Of a stretch of 64,000 nt of DNA, positions 621 through 10,105 are shown piece after piece (position 1 is the first letter of the stretch; each line of letters begins with the position of its first letter). The position numbers were made by a program, and so were the translations under genes. The notes below the pieces were generated by a model. The model saw nothing but the letters and a program-made list of their open reading frames with translations, did no database searches and was not told where the DNA came from. Origin of the DNA: an uncultured Bacteriovoracaceae bacterium (GTDB lineage: Bacteria > Bdellovibrionota > Bacteriovoracia > Bacteriovoracales > Bacteriovoracaceae); contig CAXGUD010000012.1 of assembly GCA_964012805.1 (NCBI GenBank), positions 1-64,000 on the forward strand. The letters run 5' to 3'.

Positions 621-2015
621 TTAGTTTATAGGTGACCCAGAATCAATCCAACTTTTAATGACACTTCTTTCTGCTTGAGTAATATTTGTGACGTTACCTG
701 GGGGCATAATATCGGAATCAATGGCCATGGCCTTGATTTTTGAGGAAAAACCTGCAACTAATTTTGCATTATCAAATTTTACTCCTGCTGGAGCCGTTTC
801 AATATCAGGGTATGTCGGGCTTTTCGAGTGGCATGTTGTACAACGTTCTTTTAGGATCGCATGGACATCCTCATATGTGACCTTTTTTTCATAAACCCCA
901 GGCTTTGGGAAATTTAGATTTTCACTTTTATAAGCTTTTCTTATTTTTGCCATGATGAGTGTTGTTTCATCAGAGGTAAAGCTGTTTGTGGCTATGGCCG
1001 CTTTAAGTTCCTTTTTTGTTGGGAGCTCTTTTTGGTGATGACCATGATTATTAAGAGGAGTCATTACTTTATTTATATAGTCTGCAAGTCTATTACTTTT
1101 CAGCGTTGTTGGTTGTGTGACAGGTCTTATAACAAAAGCCAGGGCAAGCATGGCAACTGTTGCACCAGGAAGGATCCAAGTGTTGTAATGTCCTTTATGT
1201 TTAAGATTAAAGTAGTGTCTGACAGAAGCACCAATCAGAGAAATTGATATGAGAATAAGCCAATTAAATTGATGGCCATATGTCATAGGAAAGTGGTTAC
1301 TAACCATAATAAAAAGGGCCGGTAGTGTAAAATAGTTATTATGGAAAGAACGAAGACCTCCAGCAGCTCCCAGGGAAGTGTCAGGTTCCTCTCCCTTTAT
1401 CATCATATCGACCATTTTTCTTTGATTGGGGATAATAACAAAGAAAACATTCGCTGCCATGATCGTTCCAATCATGGCCCCTACATGGAGGTAAGCGGCT
1501 CTTGCACTAAAGACCTCAGTAAAGCCGAAAGCTGCAAAAGAGATAAGAATAAAGCCTATAAAGGCAAAGAGTTTGGGCTTTTTGACAAGAAATGACTTAC
1601 ACATTTGATCATAAATAAGCCAGCCAAGGGTTAAGCTTGCAAGGCTAATTAAGATGGCCTGCCAGGGAAGAAGCTGCATAACGCTATCATCTATCAAGTA
1701 GAGGCTTGCGTTCCAGTAATAAACTATGGCCAGAAGGGAGACCCCTGTAATCCATGTAAAGTAAGCCTCCCATTTAAACCAGTGAAGCACTTTGGGTAAT
1801 TTTTCTGGTGCACCGGAATATTTAAGAACTTGATAAAAATGGCCTCCATGAATGGCAAAGAGCTCTCCTTGTATTCCTTTTTTCTTTTCTTTGGGCGGCC
1901 GGACATTGTGGTTGAGCCAATTAAAATAAAAGGAAGTTCCTATCCAAGCTGCACCAGTGATGAGGTGAAGCCACCTAAATAATAAATTAAGCCAGTCATT
2001 AATATAGCCTTCCAT
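621..2015 (-). CDS. puuD: Urate hydroxylase PuuD (membrane domain plus C-terminal cytochrome c)
   Basis: RWLH..WIGTSFYF, HGGHFY, LHWFKWEAY and HNNYFTLP motifs, multiple TM helices, CTTCH heme motif and distal MPP. Confidence 0.92.
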   Translation of the reverse strand: MEGYINDWLNLLFRWLHLITGAAWIGTSFYFNWLNHNVRPPKEKKKGIQGELFAIHGGHFYQVLKYSGAPEKLPKVLHWFKWEAYFTWITGVSLLAIVYYWNASLYLIDDSVMQLLPWQAILISLASLTLGWLIYDQMCKSFLVKKPKLFAFIGFILISFAAFGFTEVFSARAAYLHVGAMIGTIMAANVFFVIIPNQRKMVDMMIKGEEPDTSLGAAGGLRSFHNNYFTLPALFIMVSNHFPMTYGHQFNWLILISISLIGASVRHYFNLKHKGHYNTWILPGATVAMLALAFVIRPVTQPTTLKSNRLADYINKVMTPLNNHGHHQKELPTKKELKAAIATNSFTSDETTLIMAKIRKAYKSENLNFPKPGVYEKKVTYEDVHAILKERCTTCHSKSPTYPDIETAPAGVKFDNAKLVAGFSSKIKAMAIDSDIMPPGNVTNITQAERSVIKSWIDSGSPIN

Positions 2016-2329: not shown

Positions 2330-4621
2330 ATGAGTTTTTTAAGTGAAAAGAAGGTGAGGTCTATGATGGAGCAAAGCCGTGTGGCAGGTCTATCAGTGAC
2401 TTATATGAAAGGGAAACCTTGTGGACTTGATGAAACTTATAGTTGGGGTTTTTCAAACTTGGCAATGAAAGAAAAGGTAACACCCCTTACTCGCTTTCAA
2501 ATGGCTTCTATGACAAAAGTTGTTGCAACTGCTTTTTCCATCCAATTTTTTAATGAAAGGAAAATTAGTTTAGGCTCTCGAGTCAATGAACTTTTAAAAA
2601 ACTATAAAGCCGAATATAAATTAGAATCTGGAGAAGGGTGTGACCCTTTATGGGCCGACGAAGTTGATATAGATCATTTGCTCGACCATACTGCTTTAGA
2701 TCTAAGCTATGTTCCAGGGCACTCTTTAGGAAAGTGTCCTTCTACATTAGACCTAGTTAAAGGAAACGATGGAAATCCAAAAATAAAGCTATTGAGAAAG
2801 CCTGGCAAAGTATTTAAGTTTTCAGGCGGTGGGTTCATTCTTCTCCAATATCTCATTGAGGTTGTTGGAGGGGATTCTATTGAAAAGTTAATGAGACCTT
2901 TTCTTGATAGAATGGGGCTCTCTGATTTTAGATTTTCCCGCGAAGTGGATTCCCCAATCTTTGCAAGAGGTTATAGTGATGACGGATCTCCCATTGAAAA
3001 TGGAGCTTACACATTTCCTGCTTTAGCTGCAGGAGGGGAGTGCACGACAAGGTCTTATGCTCTTTTTCTTTCCCATCTTATAAATGCTTTCCATAATATT
3101 GATGGTTCAGGAGGAATTCATCACAATACCGCCGTTCTTATGTTCCACTCAGAAAGGTGTCAGGGAAGCGTCGACTTTATTGGTGCAAAAATGGGATTGG
3201 GTGTATTTGTAGCGAGAGCAGGCCTTAATAAAATTGCTCTTCATCACGCCGCTAATGATGGATTTCGAAGCCTTTTCTTATGCTGCATAAATGGTCCCAA
3301 TCAAGGAGAGGGGTTTGTTATTGCAAGTAACGGAAGTGACAATGCTATGAAGTTGAATTGTTTTGTTGCCCGTGAACTTTTGATACCATGGCATGGCCTA
3401 AATTTAGGTGACTCTGTTTTAGAAACCAAGGGGCTAGATCCGGAGGAAGTTGTTAGTCAGGCCTTAAAAGAAATGGTCCTTTGTTATTTTCAGGAAATTT
3501 TACCTGAAATGCCTTTTAGAGCAGGGGCCATAGAAAATCGCGCGCACCAAAACATGGCGGTAGGCTCAAAAATAATTCACTGTACAGACCAAAGTTTTGC
3601 AAGGGCCTCTAATTTATTCAGCGATAGGCAACCAGTTTTTGATGCCAATGAATTCGGACGTCAAGGTAAAATTATGGACAGCTGGGAAAGCAAAAGGCAC
3701 AACCCTCAGGAAAAAGAAACGGTTATTTTTTCACTAAAAGAAGCCAGTCAGTTTGACCTCGTTCATATTTCAACTGAGTTTCACAATGGGAATCAATGCC
3801 CTTTTGCAAGCCTTTCTGGCTGGAATGAAAAGGAAAAGGAGTGGGAGGTTATTGTTTCTAAATCCCCCCTCGAGCCCCATTCAAGCCACTGGTTTAAATT
3901 AAAAGAGGGTTCTAAGAAAGTTTGGCGGAAGCTTTCTCTGTCTGGTTACCCAGACGGTGGGATTTCTCGTTTAGGACTCTATAAAAGTAGGGAAGTCAAA
4001 GACCTTCCAGAAAATGTTGTGGAAGATTTAGATAAAGAAGGTTTTTCGATTGAAGCATGTTCTTCCAAGATACCAAAAGGTGAGGAGAAAATTGTTTTAA
4101 GGCCTGAGGATATTGATCCTGAGGTAATCGATAGAAGATGGATGTGTATTAATCAAAAGTCACCCGTTGACGTTTCATCTACTGAATATGGTGGCAAAGT
4201 TATTCAATGCACAGATGAACATTATTCACCAGCTCATCTTATTCTATCAAAGGAAAAACCTATGGGGATGGAAGATGGCCTTGAATCAAGCCGAAGTCGT
4301 GGAAATCATAATGAGGAGGTCATTGTAGGGCTTAAAAAGAAAGCGCTTATAAAAAACTTCGAATTTGATTTTACCTATTTTATTAATAATAGCCCACGGG
4401 AGATTGATATTTATGGTGATGTTGATGGGAATTGGGTGCCGATCGTAAAAAAAATGAGGGTGAAGGCCTGGGCCGGCAATATTTTAAGGCTTAATTGCGA
4501 CTCGATTCAAACGGATAAGGTACGAATAAGGATTTTTCCAGATGGAGGAATTAACCGATTTAAGGTTTTTGGAGTGCCTGCTTTAGAAAAATCTTTGTCA
4601 GACACTTCACGGTTAATGTAA
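2330..4621 (+). CDS. Fusion of beta-lactamase-family serine hydrolase (N-term) and two-repeat allantoicase (C-term)
   Basis: FQMASMTK (SxxK), LLDHT and FSGGGF in the N-term half; DSWESKRH, GNQCP, PDGGISRL, DGLESSRSR and PDGGINRF in the C-term half; GAGGAG RBS before ATG 2330. Confidence 0.85.
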   Translation: MSFLSEKKVRSMMEQSRVAGLSVTYMKGKPCGLDETYSWGFSNLAMKEKVTPLTRFQMASMTKVVATAFSIQFFNERKISLGSRVNELLKNYKAEYKLESGEGCDPLWADEVDIDHLLDHTALDLSYVPGHSLGKCPSTLDLVKGNDGNPKIKLLRKPGKVFKFSGGGFILLQYLIEVVGGDSIEKLMRPFLDRMGLSDFRFSREVDSPIFARGYSDDGSPIENGAYTFPALAAGGECTTRSYALFLSHLINAFHNIDGSGGIHHNTAVLMFHSERCQGSVDFIGAKMGLGVFVARAGLNKIALHHAANDGFRSLFLCCINGPNQGEGFVIASNGSDNAMKLNCFVARELLIPWHGLNLGDSVLETKGLDPEEVVSQALKEMVLCYFQEILPEMPFRAGAIENRAHQNMAVGSKIIHCTDQSFARASNLFSDRQPVFDANEFGRQGKIMDSWESKRHNPQEKETVIFSLKEASQFDLVHISTEFHNGNQCPFASLSGWNEKEKEWEVIVSKSPLEPHSSHWFKLKEGSKKVWRKLSLSGYPDGGISRLGLYKSREVKDLPENVVEDLDKEGFSIEACSSKIPKGEEKIVLRPEDIDPEVIDRRWMCINQKSPVDVSSTEYGGKVIQCTDEHYSPAHLILSKEKPMGMEDGLESSRSRGNHNEEVIVGLKKKALIKNFEFDFTYFINNSPREIDIYGDVDGNWVPIVKKMRVKAWAGNILRLNCDSIQTDKVRIRIFPDGGINRFKVFGVPALEKSLSDTSRLM

Positions 4622-4744
4622 CTTTTGACCAGTATTATATTTTTAATGTTCACTATTTTTCGAGGGAGAAAGGAATGGAACTTTATTCTTTCTTAACCTA
4701 TGAATTCGTACGGTCTTTAATTTAAAAAATTGAAGGAGATTGAT

Positions 4745-5851
4745 ATGCCTTTGGAATTAACACCAAGAACTCTTATGGGCCCAGGTCCGAGTGATGTTCA
4801 CCCCAGAATTTTAGAAGCAGTAGGCAAGCAAACAATTGGACATTTGGATCCACAGTTTGTTGAACTAATGGAAGCGATAAAGTCTCTTCTTAAATATACT
4901 TTTAAAACAAAAAATGAAATGACTTATACGGTTTCAGCACCAGGATCTGCCGGAATGGAAACATGCTTTGTCAATTTGGTTTCACCGGGTGATAAGGTTT
5001 TAGTTTGTATTAACGGTGTTTTTGGCAAAAGGATGTTAGAAAATGTGACGAGAATTGGTGGTGAAGCAGTTGTATTAGAGTTTCCTTGGGGTAGTGGTGT
5101 CGATCCACGAAAAGTTGAGGAAGAGTTAAAGAAAGATCCCGCGATTAAAATTGTCTCCTTTGTTCATGGAGAAACATCAACAGGTGTTTTATCTGATGCA
5201 GAAGCTATTGGAAAAATAGCAAGAGAAAATGATTGTCTTACTATTGTGGACACCGTGACTTCCTTTGTCGGAACACCTTTGGAAGTCGATAAGTGGGGGC
5301 TTGATGCTGTTTATACAGGTTCTCAAAAATGCCTTTCATGTATCCCTGGGTTATCACCAGTAACTTTTAGTGAAAGGGCCCTTGAAAAATTTGATCAAAG
5401 AAAAACACCGGTTCAAAGTTGGTTTTTGGACCTCTCTTTAATTAAGAATTATTGGGGGACGGGCGAAAAAAGAACTTATCACCATACAGCTCCTGTTAAC
5501 TCTCTTTATGCACTTTATGAATCCCTCTTGCTCATTAAAGAAGAAGGACTTGAAAATTGTTGGGAAAGGCATTTTAAAAATCACCTCAAACTAAAAGAAG
5601 GATTAGAGAAATTAAACCTTGAGTTTTTAGTTGACGAAAAAGAGAGGACTCCTCAGCTGAATGCGATAAGAGTGCCGGAGGGGGTAGATGAAGCTAAGGT
5701 AAGGGGAAGGCTTTTAAATGAATTCAACCTTGAGATTGGAGCTGGTTTAGGCCCTTTGGCCGGTAAAATCTGGCGGATAGGCCTTATGGGATATTCTTCA
5801 AGAAAAGACAATATTGACTTTCTTTTGGATTGTTTGAAAAAAGCACTTTAA
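4745..5851 (+). CDS. Alanine-glyoxylate aminotransferase family (class V PLP)
   Basis: LMGPGPS, HGETSTG, SQKC (PLP Lys), YHHTAP, WRIGLMG; AAGGAG RBS before ATG 4745. Confidence 0.9.
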   Translation: MPLELTPRTLMGPGPSDVHPRILEAVGKQTIGHLDPQFVELMEAIKSLLKYTFKTKNEMTYTVSAPGSAGMETCFVNLVSPGDKVLVCINGVFGKRMLENVTRIGGEAVVLEFPWGSGVDPRKVEEELKKDPAIKIVSFVHGETSTGVLSDAEAIGKIARENDCLTIVDTVTSFVGTPLEVDKWGLDAVYTGSQKCLSCIPGLSPVTFSERALEKFDQRKTPVQSWFLDLSLIKNYWGTGEKRTYHHTAPVNSLYALYESLLLIKEEGLENCWERHFKNHLKLKEGLEKLNLEFLVDEKERTPQLNAIRVPEGVDEAKVRGRLLNEFNLEIGAGLGPLAGKIWRIGLMGYSSRKDNIDFLLDCLKKAL

Positions 5852-6046: not shown

Positions 6047-6547
6047 ATGGCGTTTGGTTTTGAAAGAAAGGTGTGGACACCTACAACAGGTTTGAGGAAT
6101 CTTGCCCTTGTAAAACAGTGCGCAAAAGTGGTTTTTGCCACAGATGATTTTTTTGGGGCCAAAGAAAATCTTATAAGGCCCGAAAAACCTGTCCAAAAGG
6201 AGTCCGGTCTTGATGCTTGGGTTACCAAGAGGAGAAGAGGTCAAGGGCACGACTTTGCAATTATAAGACTTGGATCCATTGGGTTGGTTAAAGAGGTGAT
6301 CGTCGATACAGCTTTTATTGATGGAATGACACCTTCTTTTATTTCTATTGATATCCAAAATAGAAAGGATGTTTCTTTAAATGAAGGGCACTGGACCGAG
6401 GTTCTTCCAATGAAACCCCTCTCATCAAACCGATCTTTTCTTTTAAGGTTAAGCGAATTATATCCGGCACTCTTTGTTCGACTCAATGTCTACCCTGATG
6501 GAGGGATTGCTAGGTTGCGTTTAATGGGAGTTGAGGCCCAAGTTTAA
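6047..6547 (+). CDS. Single-repeat allantoicase-like protein (degenerate)
   Basis: ATDDFFGAKENL, KRRR.GHDFAIIRLG and RLNVYPDGGIARLRL; only one repeat (166 aa). Confidence 0.8.
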   Translation: MAFGFERKVWTPTTGLRNLALVKQCAKVVFATDDFFGAKENLIRPEKPVQKESGLDAWVTKRRRGQGHDFAIIRLGSIGLVKEVIVDTAFIDGMTPSFISIDIQNRKDVSLNEGHWTEVLPMKPLSSNRSFLLRLSELYPALFVRLNVYPDGGIARLRLMGVEAQV

Positions 6548-8728
6548 TTCTTTTTCCAAAAGCGTTACTTCTTCAGGAACTGAATACTTGTTAGGATCGC
6601 TAGCATAGGCTTTTGCCCATGGATCCCTCTCATTTCTTATGAAATCAAAAGTAAAAGGAAGAAGAAGCTCTGTTGCGAATTCACTTGGATTTGGATCAGT
6701 CATAAGTTTCGTGAGTATTTTTATACTGACTAGGTACCATTTATAAGTTTTTTTATTCCATTGAACTTGTATCTTCTTAGTTTCTGTTTCCTGGTTATAG
6801 CGGATAAAATCAATTTCCTCTTTTAGGATTTGATAGAAATCCGCTTTTGAAAAACGTTTGTGGAAAATTTCCGCCCAAACTTCCCAGCGAGACCGCTCGG
6901 TTGTTGCCAAATCATCCATAACTCTTACAAACACGTCCTTTCCGTCCCCATTTTTGAGAGTGGCCGGGAGGGCAACGCAACCATTTCCATTTAACCAATC
7001 GACCAAATACTGGATGACCTGAAAGATATTATAACGTACCTCCTCAGGGTCATTATTTTGGATCGTGCTCGACTTAGTTATAGTTGCCGCTAATAGTTCA
7101 CGGTTAAAAAGAGGGTCGTCTTTTCTTAAGTTTTCATTGTTTTTTTCTGTAACAAAGGTCCATAGATCTTTTTGTTCCTGAGGCATGGAGGGAAGAAGGA
7201 CCTTAATAAGGTTTTTTAGGTCTTTTTCTTTGTTTTCCTTTTTGAGCTTGTTCCAGGCCCAACAAATGGCGATACCTGGTCTCACGAAGTCAGGGTGAGC
7301 AACCCAAAATCCATTAAGACCTCTTCTCAGCTGAATAAGAATATCTTTAATAAAACCAATCATGGCCAGTCTATAAGATTCCCTATTTCCATGTAAAGGA
7401 AGAACCCCATACATACCACCAATAGCAGCACCCCCTTTTTCTCCTACTTCTTTTGCAACTAAGTCGTGGGACGCCTTGATATGTTTAATGACGATATTAG
7501 GATCTGCTTTAACGGGGATTCTATAGAAGGGGTCTAGGCGGAATAGCCTTGCTGTTGAAGCCAAATAATCATGCCAGCCAAGAGATCCACCGGCAAAATA
7601 AGGGTAGAGTTCTTTAATGATTTCTTTAATTCTAAAGATCGCCCTTGGGTTTTCAAAAACAATAAGGACTCTTATTGTCCCTCTTTTATAGCTCGGTTGA
7701 AAATTTTGAATCATTTCTTCTGCGGTCTCAATAAGCTTTTTTAAATAGCGGGCCTCGTTCTCATTTTCCAACTTTGGAAAATAAAATGTAAGTGCTTCAG
7801 GGTTGTTCCAGCAATGAAAAAGGTGCATTCCAAAATCGAAGAGGTGAAGGGGAAGAGGGTTTTCTTTATAAATATGCCCTCCAGAAGGCAGTCCAAACCC
7901 AGGAGGTCTTTTAATCGGCTTCGCTAATTGTTCTTTCTCTATAGAGTAATGTTTTCCACTTTTCTTGTCTTGGTATTTTAGGCTTTTATCAAAGCATTTG
8001 ATTAAATTTTTACAAGCTTCAGAAAATGAATCTATATTAGGCGTTTTAGAATCTTCATCATCGGCGCCCCACTTTGGAAGGATTTTAGATTCGTTTACGA
8101 GTTTGGTAACGAGTTCATGTTCATTTTCATCTTTACGATGCCAAGAGTTCATAGCATTGATAGACATTTTCCGAGTGTCTGAAGGCCCAAACAAGGTGAC
8201 ATGGTGACCTTTTAAATGGGAAGGTAGTTCGAAAATAGCCGTTTCAACAGGCCTTTCGAGGGGACCAACAACTACGTTTTTTTGGGCATCCTTTTTTCCA
8301 ATGATAGTTTCATATTGTTTATCCAAATAAGAAAACTTAAACTCTTTGTTTTTTTTAGACATCTGATTTGTTTGTGTATCAATAAAGTGGCGGTCTTCTT
8401 CTCTCTTTTCAAGGATTTTTCTTAGATCTTCTTTAACTTCATCATAAAGGCGGCATACAAAATAGAGGGCCTCCTCTTGCTCTAAGGGTGATTTTTTTGA
8501 AGTAAGAGGTTTCATATAAAGGCCTGGAATGCTTTTTATTTCAATCATTTCTTTTTTTAGATTTTTTAAAAGGTCACTTGAGATATAATTTGAAAAAGAT
8601 AAAACTGGTTTTTGTAAAGTATATTTAGGAGGACGTGTTTTTTTATCTTTAATATTTTCTTTATCTTTATAAGTGTTTGTATTTTCCATTTTTTTTAGTC
8701 TCTTTAAAAAGGAAAGCGTGTTTGCCAT
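6521..8728 (-). CDS. Malate synthase-like protein (divergent); exact start uncertain
   Basis: ADDEDS, KRPPG, YFPKLE, VFEN, GWHDYL, AIGGM, GFWVAHP and MDDLATTERSR match malate synthase motifs. Confidence 0.85.
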   Translation of the reverse strand: MANTLSFLKRLKKMENTNTYKDKENIKDKKTRPPKYTLQKPVLSFSNYISSDLLKNLKKEMIEIKSIPGLYMKPLTSKKSPLEQEEALYFVCRLYDEVKEDLRKILEKREEDRHFIDTQTNQMSKKNKEFKFSYLDKQYETIIGKKDAQKNVVVGPLERPVETAIFELPSHLKGHHVTLFGPSDTRKMSINAMNSWHRKDENEHELVTKLVNESKILPKWGADDEDSKTPNIDSFSEACKNLIKCFDKSLKYQDKKSGKHYSIEKEQLAKPIKRPPGFGLPSGGHIYKENPLPLHLFDFGMHLFHCWNNPEALTFYFPKLENENEARYLKKLIETAEEMIQNFQPSYKRGTIRVLIVFENPRAIFRIKEIIKELYPYFAGGSLGWHDYLASTARLFRLDPFYRIPVKADPNIVIKHIKASHDLVAKEVGEKGGAAIGGMYGVLPLHGNRESYRLAMIGFIKDILIQLRRGLNGFWVAHPDFVRPGIAICWAWNKLKKENKEKDLKNLIKVLLPSMPQEQKDLWTFVTEKNNENLRKDDPLFNRELLAATITKSSTIQNNDPEEVRYNIFQVIQYLVDWLNGNGCVALPATLKNGDGKDVFVRVMDDLATTERSRWEVWAEIFHKRFSKADFYQILKEEIDFIRYNQETETKKIQVQWNKKTYKWYLVSIKILTKLMTDPNPSEFATELLLPFTFDFIRNERDPWAKAYASDPNKYSVPEEVTLLEKELNLGLNSH

Positions 8729-8965
8729 TACCGTTTAATATTCTAATTACTCATTCAATAACTAATCCAAGCAGCAAGTAGTACATAGATTTTTTACTTT
8801 TACAAGTAGGACTAAGGTTGTTTCTCAAGTCGCTTTCATTAAAAATTCTTGACAAGTATTGATTTCAAAGTAAAGATTTCTTCCCTTTAAAAAATAGAGC
8901 TTTTTTAATAAGGCCCTTAACTATAAGACCGTTGCAGCGGAATAGAAAAATAAGAGGTGATAAGA

Positions 8966-10105
8966 ATGGCCGGTTTACTCTCTCATATAGACCCCAATGG
9001 GCATTTAGAATATTCTGTTGTCTACACAGACCGTTCTTTAAATCATATGTCTGAATCATTTCAGGAAGTGATGAAGGATATTTCTCAATCTTTAAAAAAG
9101 GTTTATAATGCTGAAGCAGTTGTTGTTGTACCGGGTAGCGGAACTTTTGGAATGGAATCTGTTGCCAGGCAATTTGCTACAAACAAAAAATGTATGGTTA
9201 TTAGAAATGGGTTTTTTAGTTATCGTTGGACTCAAATTTTTGAAATGGGAGAAATTCCTTCTGAAAGTAAAGTTTTAAAGGCGACACCTGTTGAGGATGG
9301 AAAACAGGCTTCTTTTGCTCCCGCACCCCTTGAAGAAGTCATCGCTAATATTAAATTATTTAAACCTGACGTTGTGTTTGCTCCTCATGTTGAAACGTCG
9401 GCGGGAATGATCCTCCCCGATTCGTATATTCACGCCGTATCGGATGCTGTTCACGAAGTTGGTGGCCTCTTAGTTTTAGATTGCATCGCTTCGGGAACTA
9501 TTTGGGTTGATATGAAAAAGTGTGGGGTTGATATTCTTATTAGTGCCCCTCAAAAAGGTTGGAGCGCTTCTCCTTGTTGTGCTTTGGTTATGTTGAGTGA
9601 AGAAGGAAAAAAGAAACTTAGTACTACAACAAGCACCAGCTTTTCTTGCGATTTAAAGAAGTGGCATCAAATTATGGAAGCCTATGAGAAAGGAGGTCAT
9701 GCTTATCATGCAACTATGCCTACCGACAGCTTGAAAACCTTTAGAAATGCGATGAATGAAGCAATTGATTATGGACTCTTAAAAGTCAAAAGTGATCAGC
9801 AGGTTTTGGGTCAAAAAATACGGGATTTGTTAGAGGCAAAAGGTATAAAAAGTCTTGCGGCAAAAGGCTTCCAAGCCCCTGGTGTAATTGTCAGTTATAC
9901 CAACGATCCTGGAGTAAAAACTGGTAAGAAATTTTTAGAGTATGATATCCAAATAGCAGCAGGTGTACCTCTTAAATGTGATGAGCCTAGTGATTTTCAA
10001 ACATTTCGTATTGGTCTTTTTGGACTCGATAAATTAAAAAATATTGATAGAACTGTTTCAAATATTTCAGACGCCTTTGATCAGATTCTAGGAAAAATTC
10101 ACTGA
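8966..10105 (+). CDS. Class V aminotransferase (serine/alanine-glyoxylate family)
   Basis: EYSVVYTDRSLNHMS N-terminus, HVETSAG, LDCIASG, SAPQKGW, YHATMP, FRIGLFG; GAGGT RBS. Confidence 0.9.
   Translation: MAGLLSHIDPNGHLEYSVVYTDRSLNHMSESFQEVMKDISQSLKKVYNAEAVVVVPGSGTFGMESVARQFATNKKCMVIRNGFFSYRWTQIFEMGEIPSESKVLKATPVEDGKQASFAPAPLEEVIANIKLFKPDVVFAPHVETSAGMILPDSYIHAVSDAVHEVGGLLVLDCIASGTIWVDMKKCGVDILISAPQKGWSASPCCALVMLSEEGKKKLSTTTSTSFSCDLKKWHQIMEAYEKGGHAYHATMPTDSLKTFRNAMNEAIDYGLLKVKSDQQVLGQKIRDLLEAKGIKSLAAKGFQAPGVIVSYTNDPGVKTGKKFLEYDIQIAAGVPLKCDEPSDFQTFRIGLFGLDKLKNIDRTVSNISDAFDQILGKIH

Follow-up and report, generated by a model that had tools for sequence, protein, structure and literature searches.

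The gene that begins at position 2,330 of the window (the whole stretch of 64,000 nucleotides analysed here, from a bacterium of predatory type) joins a beta-lactamase-fold (Bla) serine hydrolase domain to an allantoicase, and raises the question of what such a domain does, if anything, in the breakdown of urate. The first-pass annotation had proposed a serine-dependent allantoinase, not homologous to the known ones, that would pass its product to the allantoicase half. As other options, it had considered the hydrolysis of HIU and, in view of a Tyr-to-Phe change in one motif, an inactive binding domain.

The frame runs without a stop from the ATG at 2330 to 4621 on the forward strand (763 codons), and a TTG codon lies upstream at 2303. 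As had been read from the uninterrupted frame, it contains an SxxK hydrolase followed by two allantoicase repeats: PF00144 (Beta-lactamase) matched residues 7–338 with 66.9 bits and PF03561 (Allantoicase) matched across the protein, in two repeats, with 180.7 bits, the cut-off being 27 bits for each (the gathering cut-off, in the case of PF00144). The score with the NCBIfam allantoicase equivalog TIGR02961 was 187.3 bits, below its cut-off of 277.9, and the motifs GK-MDSWE-R, PDGG-R and DG-E-R-R of both allantoicase repeats were seen to be kept in the alignments. The Pfam and NCBIfam profile searches gave no match of the fusion protein to Amidohydro or Polysacc_deac, that is, to the homology groups of AllB or PuuE. 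By eye, the N-terminus is without any hydrophobic stretch, in agreement with the earlier remark that there is no signal peptide. In the AlphaFold model of the whole protein (pLDDT 90), the pTM of 0.89 points to a joint packing of both halves into a single body. The same two-domain protein was found, with 67–99% identity, as P0002–P0008 (the sources of P0003–P0008 being ENA, JGI and NCBI) and at two genome loci, L016 and L017. Because it occurs in other assemblies, the fusion cannot be put down to an artefact of assembly; a chimeric ORF was thus ruled out, and with it the concern of the first-pass annotation that the fusion could be unique to one assembly.

Table 1. Features of the fusion gene and of its neighbours in the window.
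Feature	Position	Strand	Evidence
PuuD-type membrane urate oxidase, divergent from the fusion gene	621..2015	-	Pfam Urate_ox_N, 422 bits
Fusion ORF, Bla-fold domain and two allantoicase repeats	2330..4621	+	Translation, Pfam, AlphaFold
N-terminal beta-lactamase/PBP-fold domain and linker, residues 1-397	2330..3520	+	PF00144, AlphaFold, Foldseek
S-x-x-K motif, Ser60-Met-Thr-Lys63	2507..2518	+	Family alignments
F-S-G-G-G motif, Phe164 at the position of the family's Tyr (YxN motif)	2819..2833	+	Alignment
Third motif, H305-H-A-A-N309 (family consensus H-Q-G/A-A-N)	3242..3256	+	Alignment
Allantoicase repeat 1	3563..3985	+	PF03561, 108.8 bits
Allantoicase repeat 2	4190..4579	+	PF03561, 80.2 bits
AGXT-family class V aminotransferase	4730..5851	+	Pfam Aminotran_5
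Small protein of 166 aa, one allantoicase repeat	6047..6547	+	PF03561, 110 bits
Malate-synthase-like protein	6521..8728	-	MS_TIM-barrel, 90.6 bits
Second class V aminotransferase	8957..10105	+	Pfam; solved relative 3ke3, 488 bits

The N-domain was also modelled by itself (pLDDT 92, pTM 0.93). In Foldseek, this model matched Pab87 (2qmi), the esterase IS11 (7spn), LACTB (7v21) and class C (ADC) enzymes with TM values of 0.63–0.70 and a probability of 1.00. As shown with the model, the domain folds like the class C beta-lactamase/PBP group. The alkaline D-peptidase 4y7p, the R61 DD-peptidase 1cef, the class C beta-lactamases, the D-amino-acid amidase 2dns, Pab87, IS11 and LACTB have in common with the Bla family both the fold and the S-x-x-K / Y-x-N / (K/H)-x-G frame. 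They are enzymes that cleave amides or esters through a serine acyl-enzyme, none of them is tied to ureide metabolism, and their identity to the family is 14–21%, with profile E-values of 1e-14 at best.

Concerning the motifs, translation and alignments placed the serine codon of ASMTK (2507), the Phe codon (2819) and the HHAAN sequence just where the first-pass annotation had named them. Ser60 and Lys63 were invariant in the alignments A2–A4 and conserved to at least 90% in A1. In a profile alignment to 4y7p, the Y-S-G of the family sits on Y-S-N, with Gly throughout the family where the canonical YxN motif has Asn, while in the window protein it is F164-S-G that aligns to Y-S-N, the Tyr general base being missing. 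The H305-H-A of the third motif may correspond, by its position, to the H-T-G of R61 (third motif K/H-T/S-G). His305 is invariant in the family, and Ser60, Lys63, His305 and Asn309 are all retained in the window protein. In class C beta-lactamases, Tyr-to-Phe mutants keep partial activity on some substrates.

A threshold of E ≤ 1e-30 sets off the subfamily of the N-domain, with 87 representatives, well apart from generic PF00144: its members scored 130–408 bits, the full-length ones with 31–49% identity, against about 85–95 bits for generic PF00144 proteins. A search of domain architectures, as the first-pass annotation had advised, brought out the two-domain form and larger layouts among 32 members analyzed with Pfam. 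These were standalone Bla; Bla and allantoicase; OHCU decarboxylase, Bla and allantoicase; a malate-synthase-like module, with or without OHCU decarboxylase, followed by Bla and allantoicase; and Bla, AllA-type lyase and allantoicase. The form found in most Bdellovibrio-like genomes is a protein of about 1550 residues with the succession malate-synthase-like/OHCU decarboxylase/Bla/allantoicase, encoded beside puuD and HIU hydrolase genes. The Bla and malate-synthase-like matches share one frame in 72 of 80 genome loci, where the frames not ended by a contig edge measured 1373–1657 aa, four shorter ones excepted. The order OHCU decarboxylase, Bla, allantoicase parallels the order of the pathway steps, and the Ser, Lys, Tyr and His residues are invariant among the members of Tyr type. 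The four-domain proteins of Bdellovibrionota (e.g., L079:7433-12055, from Peredibacter, 1540 aa) have Bla and allantoicase halves homologous to those of the window protein, with 34–41% identity over the Bla domain, and both kinds of protein are encoded in a puuD cluster. Unlike them, the window protein has neither of these N-terminal modules (malate-synthase-like and OHCU decarboxylase), shows Phe164 together with ten further changes, and coexists with AllB. The standalone members appear to derive from protists; the few sources named for them by cluster look-up were from EukProt, one being a Polykrikos transcript, and several have ends that resemble peroxisome-targeting signals.

AllB (DAL1; TIGR03178) opens the ring of (S)-allantoin to give allantoate, as the Tyr-type Bla domain is predicted to do, and both occupy the same pathway position and the same operon neighbourhood beside allantoicase. 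However, AllB is a binuclear-metal cyclic amidohydrolase with a TIM barrel, whereas Bla has a serine acyl-enzyme fold, and the two are unrelated. The metal-independent PuuE (TIGR03212) also differs from Bla, its fold being that of polysaccharide deacetylases. The opening of the allantoin ring is not known to be done by types of enzyme other than these two, AllB and PuuE. A precedent for a further type is the study of 2008 in which PuuE, an allantoinase not homologous to AllB, was reportedly found by way of genomes with the pathway but without AllB.

The distribution of these enzymes was studied in a phylum sample of 401 genomes; allantoicase was found in 103, one of which is the window's own. 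Of the remaining 102, 71 had Bla alone, 30 had AllB alone, one had neither and none had both. In this set, Bla and AllB exclude each other, as in the anti-correlation that the first-pass annotation had wished to see checked. Even single genera (g100 and g154) contained both the Bla-only and the AllB-only state. None of 130 genome searches (0/80 and 0/50) turned up PuuE, which was also absent from the window's own genome. AllB-like matches below the cut-off (114–281 bits) were considered as a possible hiding place of AllB. Among seven of the highest-scoring ones, six were dihydropyrimidinase or dihydroorotase, and the seventh, in the genome of the nearest relative (G001), was a true AllB–OHCU decarboxylase fusion ended by a contig edge. 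Because AllB is absent from all the Bla-positive genomes of the 102 and PuuE was found in none of the genomes searched for it, the Tyr-type Bla subfamily is, judging from sequences and their genomic distribution, very probably a serine-type allantoinase. A role as HIU hydrolase analogue was rejected: it is unlikely because a separate transthyretin-type HIUase gene adjoins the fusion in 58 of the 80 loci (PuuD being counted in 54 and AllB in none of these neighbourhoods), and such an enzyme is also encoded in the window's own genome.

In a search of the main texts of openly accessible papers, neither the fusion nor a serine-type allantoinase was found described, which agrees with the earlier impression that the fusion is undescribed. 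The words "lactamase" and "serine hydrolase" do not occur in the consulted part of a 2026 review (PMC13751858). A zebrafish peroxisome paper has LACTB2, unrelated to the Bla subfamily, as its sole mention of a lactamase, and a conventional allantoinase is listed in the Guillardia paper.

The window's own genome departs from the mutual exclusion. It encodes an AllB (508 bits versus a cut-off of 358) fused to OHCU decarboxylase, and therefore no allantoinase is missing there. HIU hydrolase and a canonical standalone allantoicase (319.5 bits with Pfam) are encoded at other loci of this genome, in which no AllA-type ureidoglycolate lyase was found. So, the proposal of a serine-dependent allantoinase is well supported for the Bla family, by the exclusion and by the domain order, and goes against the evidence for the very gene on which it was made; likewise, the circumstance that carriers of the fusion also encode AllB or PuuE, which the first-pass annotation had taken as adverse, is found in the window's genome and, with respect to AllB, in none of the 71 Bla-positive ones. 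The nearest relative, G001, also has AllB–OHCU decarboxylase, and one standalone allantoicase is present in each of G001 and G002, the third genome of the clade with Phe. Neither AllB nor OHCU decarboxylase was found in G002, a genome of uncertain completeness, which may depend on its Phe-type Bla domain.

Phe at position 164 is confined to P0001–P0008, L016 and L017; 78 of the 80 loci and 65 library proteins have Tyr. The earlier flag on this residue was well placed, as the change belongs to the window's clade and is accompanied there by others in the active-site motifs. Taking as reference the 71 N-domain columns conserved to at least 95% in 72 Tyr-type sequences, the six clade sequences compared were altered in 11 (Tyr164 and ten more), four of them inside the three catalytic motifs, while 5 of 62 conserved columns were altered in the allantoicase half. 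The alterations include Y164F, Q306H, G307A and L61M, and the invariant His126, Ser264 and Asp277 are gone. Positions 126 and 264 are variable within the clade, and all six sequences share F164, H306, M61 and Q173. The changed positions, being mostly fixed in the clade, look like a selected new state and not like drift. When the window's copy was compared with L016, the Bla part gave a dN/dS of 0.075 and the allantoicase part one of 0.073, with dS about 1.1–1.3. The Bla domain of the window's copy is under strong purifying selection and is not decaying.

With respect to the neighbouring genes, the divergent orientation towards puuD, noticed at first reading, was confirmed by the PuuD-type profile match (Table 1). 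The closest solved relative of the first aminotransferase is the alanine-glyoxylate aminotransferase 1vjo (377 bits, with 279 bits for PucG, 3isl), and by this similarity it is likely a glyoxylate aminotransferase. Each of the two class V aminotransferases was matched in 2 of the 80 related loci; both resemble ordinary glyoxylate aminotransferases. The single-repeat allantoicase ORF gave a tblastn match of 260 bits at the corresponding place in L016. The malate-synthase-like product scored 137 bits with the malate synthase A model, whose cut-off is 594, and 612–702 bits by tblastn with the full-length malate-synthase-like modules of related loci. In sequence, it corresponds to the module that opens the four-domain proteins, and it is a candidate for a ureidoglycolate lyase. 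A malate-synthase-like ureidoglycolate lyase, DrMSL, acts in zebrafish at the last step of purine breakdown (PMC10120013). DrMSL is a recruited homologue of malate synthase; this product and the fusions' N-terminal modules are divergent homologues of it in ureide clusters. The UGL group described in that paper is stated there to hold eukaryotic sequences only.

It seems reasonable to interpret the product of 2330–4621 as a shortened relative, with two domains, of the four-domain protein for urate breakdown in Bdellovibrio-like bacteria, in which the predicted serine-allantoinase domain has given up the allantoinase job, a reading to which we give about even chances. It is because the catalytic Tyr is gone and an ordinary AllB is in the genome that the Bla domain is likely no longer an allantoinase here. 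In the ancestral form, Ser60 would attack the amide in the ring of (S)-allantoin, the acid/base role falling to Lys63 and Tyr164, and the allantoate would be handed on to the adjoining allantoicase domain. In the window's lineage, the AllB–OHCU decarboxylase route would have taken over the ring opening, the fused OHCU decarboxylase module would have been lost, and the malate-synthase-like module would have become a separate gene. The Bla active site would have been remodelled by the alterations listed above, from Y164F to the loss of Asp277, and the domain would now be retained, most likely because it binds a ligand or has a structural function as the partner of the allantoicase half. That half likely still cleaves allantoate to ureidoglycolate and urea. 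In the corresponding route, PuuD would oxidise urate, HIUase and OHCU decarboxylase–AllB, encoded elsewhere, would lead to allantoate, allantoicase would give ureidoglycolate, and the malate-synthase-like protein and the AGXT-type aminotransferase would likely produce glyoxylate and then glycine.

The window N-domain could instead still be a working serine allantoinase, parallel to AllB and feeding its own allantoicase half, which we consider rather doubtful. All the family-level evidence of layouts and Bla/AllB exclusion would apply to it, but in the other 102 genomes that same evidence never puts Bla and AllB together. The retained Ser60, Lys63, His305 and Asn309, and the purifying selection on the Bla part, equal to that on the allantoicase half, are consistent with activity. 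However, the Tyr invariant in all other members is Phe, and ten more invariant positions are altered, two of them being now freely variable. The clade-wide Q306H, beside His305, could provide a replacement base. AllB was not found in G002, whereas in the window's genome AllB, HIUase, OHCU decarboxylase and canonical allantoicase are all present, with nothing missing.

It is decidedly unlikely, in our estimate, that the remodelled N-domain is a new hydrolase for some other small amide or ureide, working through Ser60, Lys63 and the new His306, in a clade-specific variant of the pathway. The active-site changes fixed in all six clade sequences, rather than scattered, and the strong purifying selection would suit such an enzyme, but its general-base Tyr is gone and the clade is not uniform at positions 126 and 264. 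The clade cluster does have genes not shown by other loci (the two aminotransferases and the single-repeat allantoicase gene, the latter matched in L016), but this context yields no candidate substrate; the aminotransferases look like the ordinary glyoxylate type. Finally, that the entire Bla subfamily is not an allantoinase, but a non-catalytic assembly module or the enzyme of another step, allantoin being opened by an unrecognised enzyme, seems very improbable: the family role does rest on sequence and genome context, Gly replaces the canonical Asn family-wide and the solved relatives are just distantly similar, but against it stand the exclusion from AllB even within genera, the invariance of Ser, Lys, Tyr and His in Tyr-type members, a domain order that mirrors the pathway, and an HIUase separately encoded next to the fusion.

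Beside the preferred reading, a Bla domain withdrawn from the allantoinase job in this lineage, there is a broader one that we hold with fair confidence: the window protein would belong to a third class of allantoinase, dependent on serine and unrelated to AllB and PuuE, which its exceptional state helps to bring to light. Most of the Bdellovibrio-like bacteria that degrade urate would use this class, and the Phe copy of the window would be a natural Tyr knock-out kept for a new role in a lineage that carries AllB. AllB and the Bla domain coexist in the window's lineage, and it is precisely there that the catalytic Tyr has been lost and yet the domain conserved. This loss beside AllB is indirect support for the role of the family and would be a clean case of an enzyme domain turned into something else. 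The window's copy also gives natural controls, of Phe type versus Tyr type, that the four-domain proteins cannot provide. If true, a serine-hydrolase allantoinase would be the third independent solution to the opening of the allantoin ring, the annotation of Bla subfamily proteins as "serine hydrolase" or "beta-lactamase" would be corrected, and an apparent gap in the purine breakdown of predatory bacteria, and probably of several protist lineages, would be closed.

The gene that the first-pass annotation had described as one reading frame, joining a beta-lactamase-fold (Bla) N-domain to two allantoicase repeats, is a single frame open over 763 codons, in which Pfam recognized both Beta-lactamase (PF00144, 66.9 bits) and Allantoicase (PF03561, 180.7 bits). 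The Ser and Phe motif codons and the HHAAN motif were all exactly in place, and the PuuD-type urate oxidase gene is transcribed away from the fusion gene, as had been claimed. The fusion is not unique to this assembly, since the same two domains are shared by seven other database proteins, 67–99% identical to the window protein, and are encoded as a two-domain protein at two other genome loci (L016 and L017).

Features of the fusion gene, its neighbourhood and related loci (window positions unless a genome or locus is named)
Feature	Position	Strand	Remarks
PuuD-type urate oxidase	621-2015	-	divergent from fusion gene
Bla-allantoicase fusion	2330-4621	+	Bla domain at residues 7-338
S-x-x-K motif, A-S60-M-T-K63	2507 (Ser codon)	+	
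F164-S-G-G-G motif	2819 (Phe codon)	+	
Third motif, H305-H-A-A-N309			window protein
Allantoicase repeats, PF03561	3563-3985 and 4190-4579	+	
AGXT-family aminotransferase	4730-5851		downstream of fusion gene; best solved relative 1vjo, 377 bits
166-aa protein, single allantoicase repeat	6047-6547	+	110 bits
Malate-synthase-like (MS-like) gene, very divergent	6521-8728	-	137 bits (malate synthase A cut-off, 594)
Second class V aminotransferase	8957-10105		downstream of fusion gene
Second MS-like gene, window's genome	G000:C5:140756-141403		
AllB C-terminally fused to OHCU decarboxylase, window's genome	G000:C16, L012:8048-10236	-	617 aa; HIU hydrolase gene overlaps its end
XdhC and xanthine dehydrogenase subunit genes, Peredibacter	L079:13964-18584	-	just downstream of four-domain gene
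Bla module match, another genome	G387:C20:18540-19599		split in two pieces, one with an internal TGA stop; broken gene or sequencing error possible

Structure models were confident both for the N-domain (pLDDT 92, pTM 0.93) and for the full-length protein as one body (pLDDT 90, pTM 0.89). The N-domain model matched the class C beta-lactamase/PBP-like fold with TM of 0.63–0.70 at only 14–21% identity, the matches including Pab87 (2qmi), esterase IS11 (7spn), FmtA-like 4gdn, LACTB (7v21) and ADC class C enzymes. In a profile search, the top solved structure was the alkaline D-peptidase 4y7p (E 1.4e-14), whose Y-S-N aligned with the Y-S-G of the Bla family. Residue 164 therefore corresponds to the Tyr of the canonical YxN motif; Gly takes the place of its Asn across the whole family.

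When the N-domain alone was searched against 1.84 billion representative proteins, 87 were retrieved at E≤1e-30, beyond which scores dropped to the generic PF00144 level. Pfam scans of 32 members of this Bla subfamily revealed five layouts: standalone Bla (about 390–455 aa); Bla plus allantoicase; OHCU decarboxylase, Bla and allantoicase; MS-like, OHCU decarboxylase (not always detected), Bla and allantoicase, with complete forms of 1416–1775 aa; and, in one member, Bla, AllA-type ureidoglycolate lyase and allantoicase. At least some members are eukaryotic, their names or sources indicating Ectocarpus, Hyaloraphidium and a Polykrikos transcript; this last, from a dinoflagellate, combines Bla, AllA-type lyase and allantoicase with an -SKL end. 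Several standalone members also end in -SKL, -SRL or -ARM in the subfamily alignment, ends that resemble peroxisomal targeting signals; the proteins behind these observations on C-terminal ends are P0039, P0045, P0046, P0048, P0049, P0057 and P0056. In one genome per species from 185,579 prokaryotic species, 148 stretches encoding a relative were found. The best 80 of the 148 were nearly all Bdellovibrio-like by label (Bacteriovoracaceae, Halobacteriovoraceae, Bdellovibrionales, Oligoflexia), with few other labels, including one Chlamydiales and three Planctomycetia MAGs. The nearest relative of the window protein among these prokaryotic loci, at 86% identity, came from a Halobacteriovoraceae MAG.

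The 80 loci, many shortened by contig ends, were queried by local tblastn with the purine-pathway proteins of the window's own genome. Matches were obtained with the MS-like query in 75, HIU hydrolase in 58, OHCU decarboxylase in 54 and PuuD in 54, and with AllB in none. The Bla and MS-like matches lay within the same open frame in 72 of the 80, and Bla-holding frames uncut by contig ends measured 1373–1657 aa, four shorter ones excepted. In the complete Peredibacter genome (L079), PuuD and HIU hydrolase are followed by a 1540-aa protein comprising MS-like, OHCU decarboxylase, Bla and allantoicase modules. The cluster therefore holds all urate-to-glyoxylate steps save allantoinase, and the Bla module is placed between the two enzymes flanking that step. 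With its xanthine dehydrogenase genes, the cluster extends from xanthine to glyoxylate.

The MS-like protein of the window corresponds to the N-terminal module of these four-domain proteins. By analogy with zebrafish DrMSL, whose group is said to be eukaryote-only (PMC10120013), it is possibly a bacterial version of ureidoglycolate lyase. The end of the convergent 166-aa ORF overlaps that of the MS-like ORF by 27 bases; the 166-aa ORF has an altered allantoicase GK-MDSWE motif and gave a tblastn match (260 bits) at the same place in L016.

The anti-correlation with other allantoinases, a check proposed in the first-pass annotation, was analyzed across the phylum. From 401 genomes drawn with at least 90% completeness requested, 103 had allantoicase, the window's own included; the other 102 were scored in two batches (80, then 22), AllB being called with TIGR03178 at its curated cut-off of 357.85 bits and the Bla subfamily with its profile at E≤1e-40. 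Genomes were first grouped by kind of allantoicase match, and finally tabulated by AllB and Bla as measured. AllB was absent from all 71 genomes with the Bla subfamily and present in 30 of the 31 without it, the exception being G321 (90% complete), so the expected anti-correlation held at the level of the family. PuuE (TIGR03212) was above cut-off in none of the 80 genomes of the first batch. A second sample of 50 genomes, reached via the loci, chosen for longer contigs and overlapping the first to an undefined extent, had neither AllB nor PuuE over cut-off (0/50 each). NCBIfam classification of seven AllB-like matches that scored among the highest below the cut-off identified six as dihydropyrimidinase (535–614 bits) or dihydroorotase (667–677 bits), not hidden AllB, and one as a genuine AllB-OHCU decarboxylase truncated by a contig end. 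Where present, the AllB gene adjoined a standalone allantoicase gene. The taxonomic family f1 included both states (43 genomes with Bla, 8 with AllB), and genera g100 and g154 each contained AllB with standalone allantoicase as well as Bla-containing fusions, so one ancient divergence does not explain the pattern, although genomes that are related do not count as independent observations. Within both genera, this suggests recent exchange of one system for the other. Such mutual exclusion is a signature of non-orthologous displacement, and the members with a Y-S-G-G-G motif (Tyr type) are predicted, with good confidence, to be allantoinases; no description of them as such was found in a literature search.

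The window's own genome encodes, at other loci, all the enzymes needed: AllB (508 bits) fused to OHCU decarboxylase, with HIU hydrolase encoded next to it, and an allantoicase of 337 aa that stands alone (Pfam, 319.5 bits). Neither PuuE nor an AllA-type lyase was found in it. In the other AllB-bearing genomes sampled from the phylum, AllB frames were mostly of 441–524 aa and adjoined allantoicase instead. The AllB-OHCU decarboxylase recurs in the genome of L016, and standalone allantoicase in those of both L016 and L017.

Of the 80 loci, 78 have Tyr164; the two that lack it, L016 and L017, are those most closely related to the window. A regular-expression scan of 108 library proteins gave 65 with Tyr and eight with Phe, the latter (P0001–P0008) comprising the window protein itself and others that share at least 67% identity with it; three hits were off-motif, elsewhere in long proteins, and 32 fragments or variants had none. 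Six sequences of this Phe clade were compared with 72 of the Tyr type, taking columns conserved in at least 95% of the Tyr type as changed when altered in at least five of the six. Changes affected 11 of 71 such columns in the N-domain (L61M, H126, Y164F, E173Q, S264, D277C, M284I, Q306H, G307A, N376S, Y379L), four of them inside the three catalytic motifs, and 5 of 62 in the allantoicase half. Residues 126 and 264 differ among members of the clade. Simple decay of the Bla domain is countered by the low dN/dS between window and L016 (Bla part, 0.075; allantoicase part, 0.073; dS 1.1–1.3), by the fixation of most changed positions across the clade and by the intact Ser60, Lys63, His305 and Asn309.

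The most economical account, which may well be right and could equally be wrong, is that the window's Bla domain is a remodelled, retained derivative, likely no longer the allantoinase of the pathway. An ancestor would have had a Tyr-type Bla-allantoicase, a two-domain form that exists today (L018, P0010–P0012; no AllB was found in the L018 genome). The window's lineage, also carrying the AllB-OHCU decarboxylase/HIU hydrolase set and standalone allantoicase, would then have lost the ancestral catalytic tyrosine from a Bla domain that was reshaped, yet kept. AllB and OHCU decarboxylase were not found in the L017 genome, whose completeness is not given, so this is neutral to the domain having been remodelled. 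That the window's domain is still an allantoinase, as its retained serine, lysine, histidine and asparagine would allow, is rather unlikely: the serine-allantoinase interpretation of the first-pass annotation is favoured for the family by the AllB/Bla exclusion and probably fails for this copy, given Tyr164Phe, the other changes and the presence of AllB. A new hydrolytic activity, compatible with the same residues and with the clade-wide changes, seems less probable again. That the Bla family has a function other than that of an allantoinase is very improbable in the face of the exclusion pattern.

With the Bla family, the known allantoinase reaction would gain a third, new type of enzyme, and the remodelled copy in the window, as a derived variant of that family, would be useful as a natural control.
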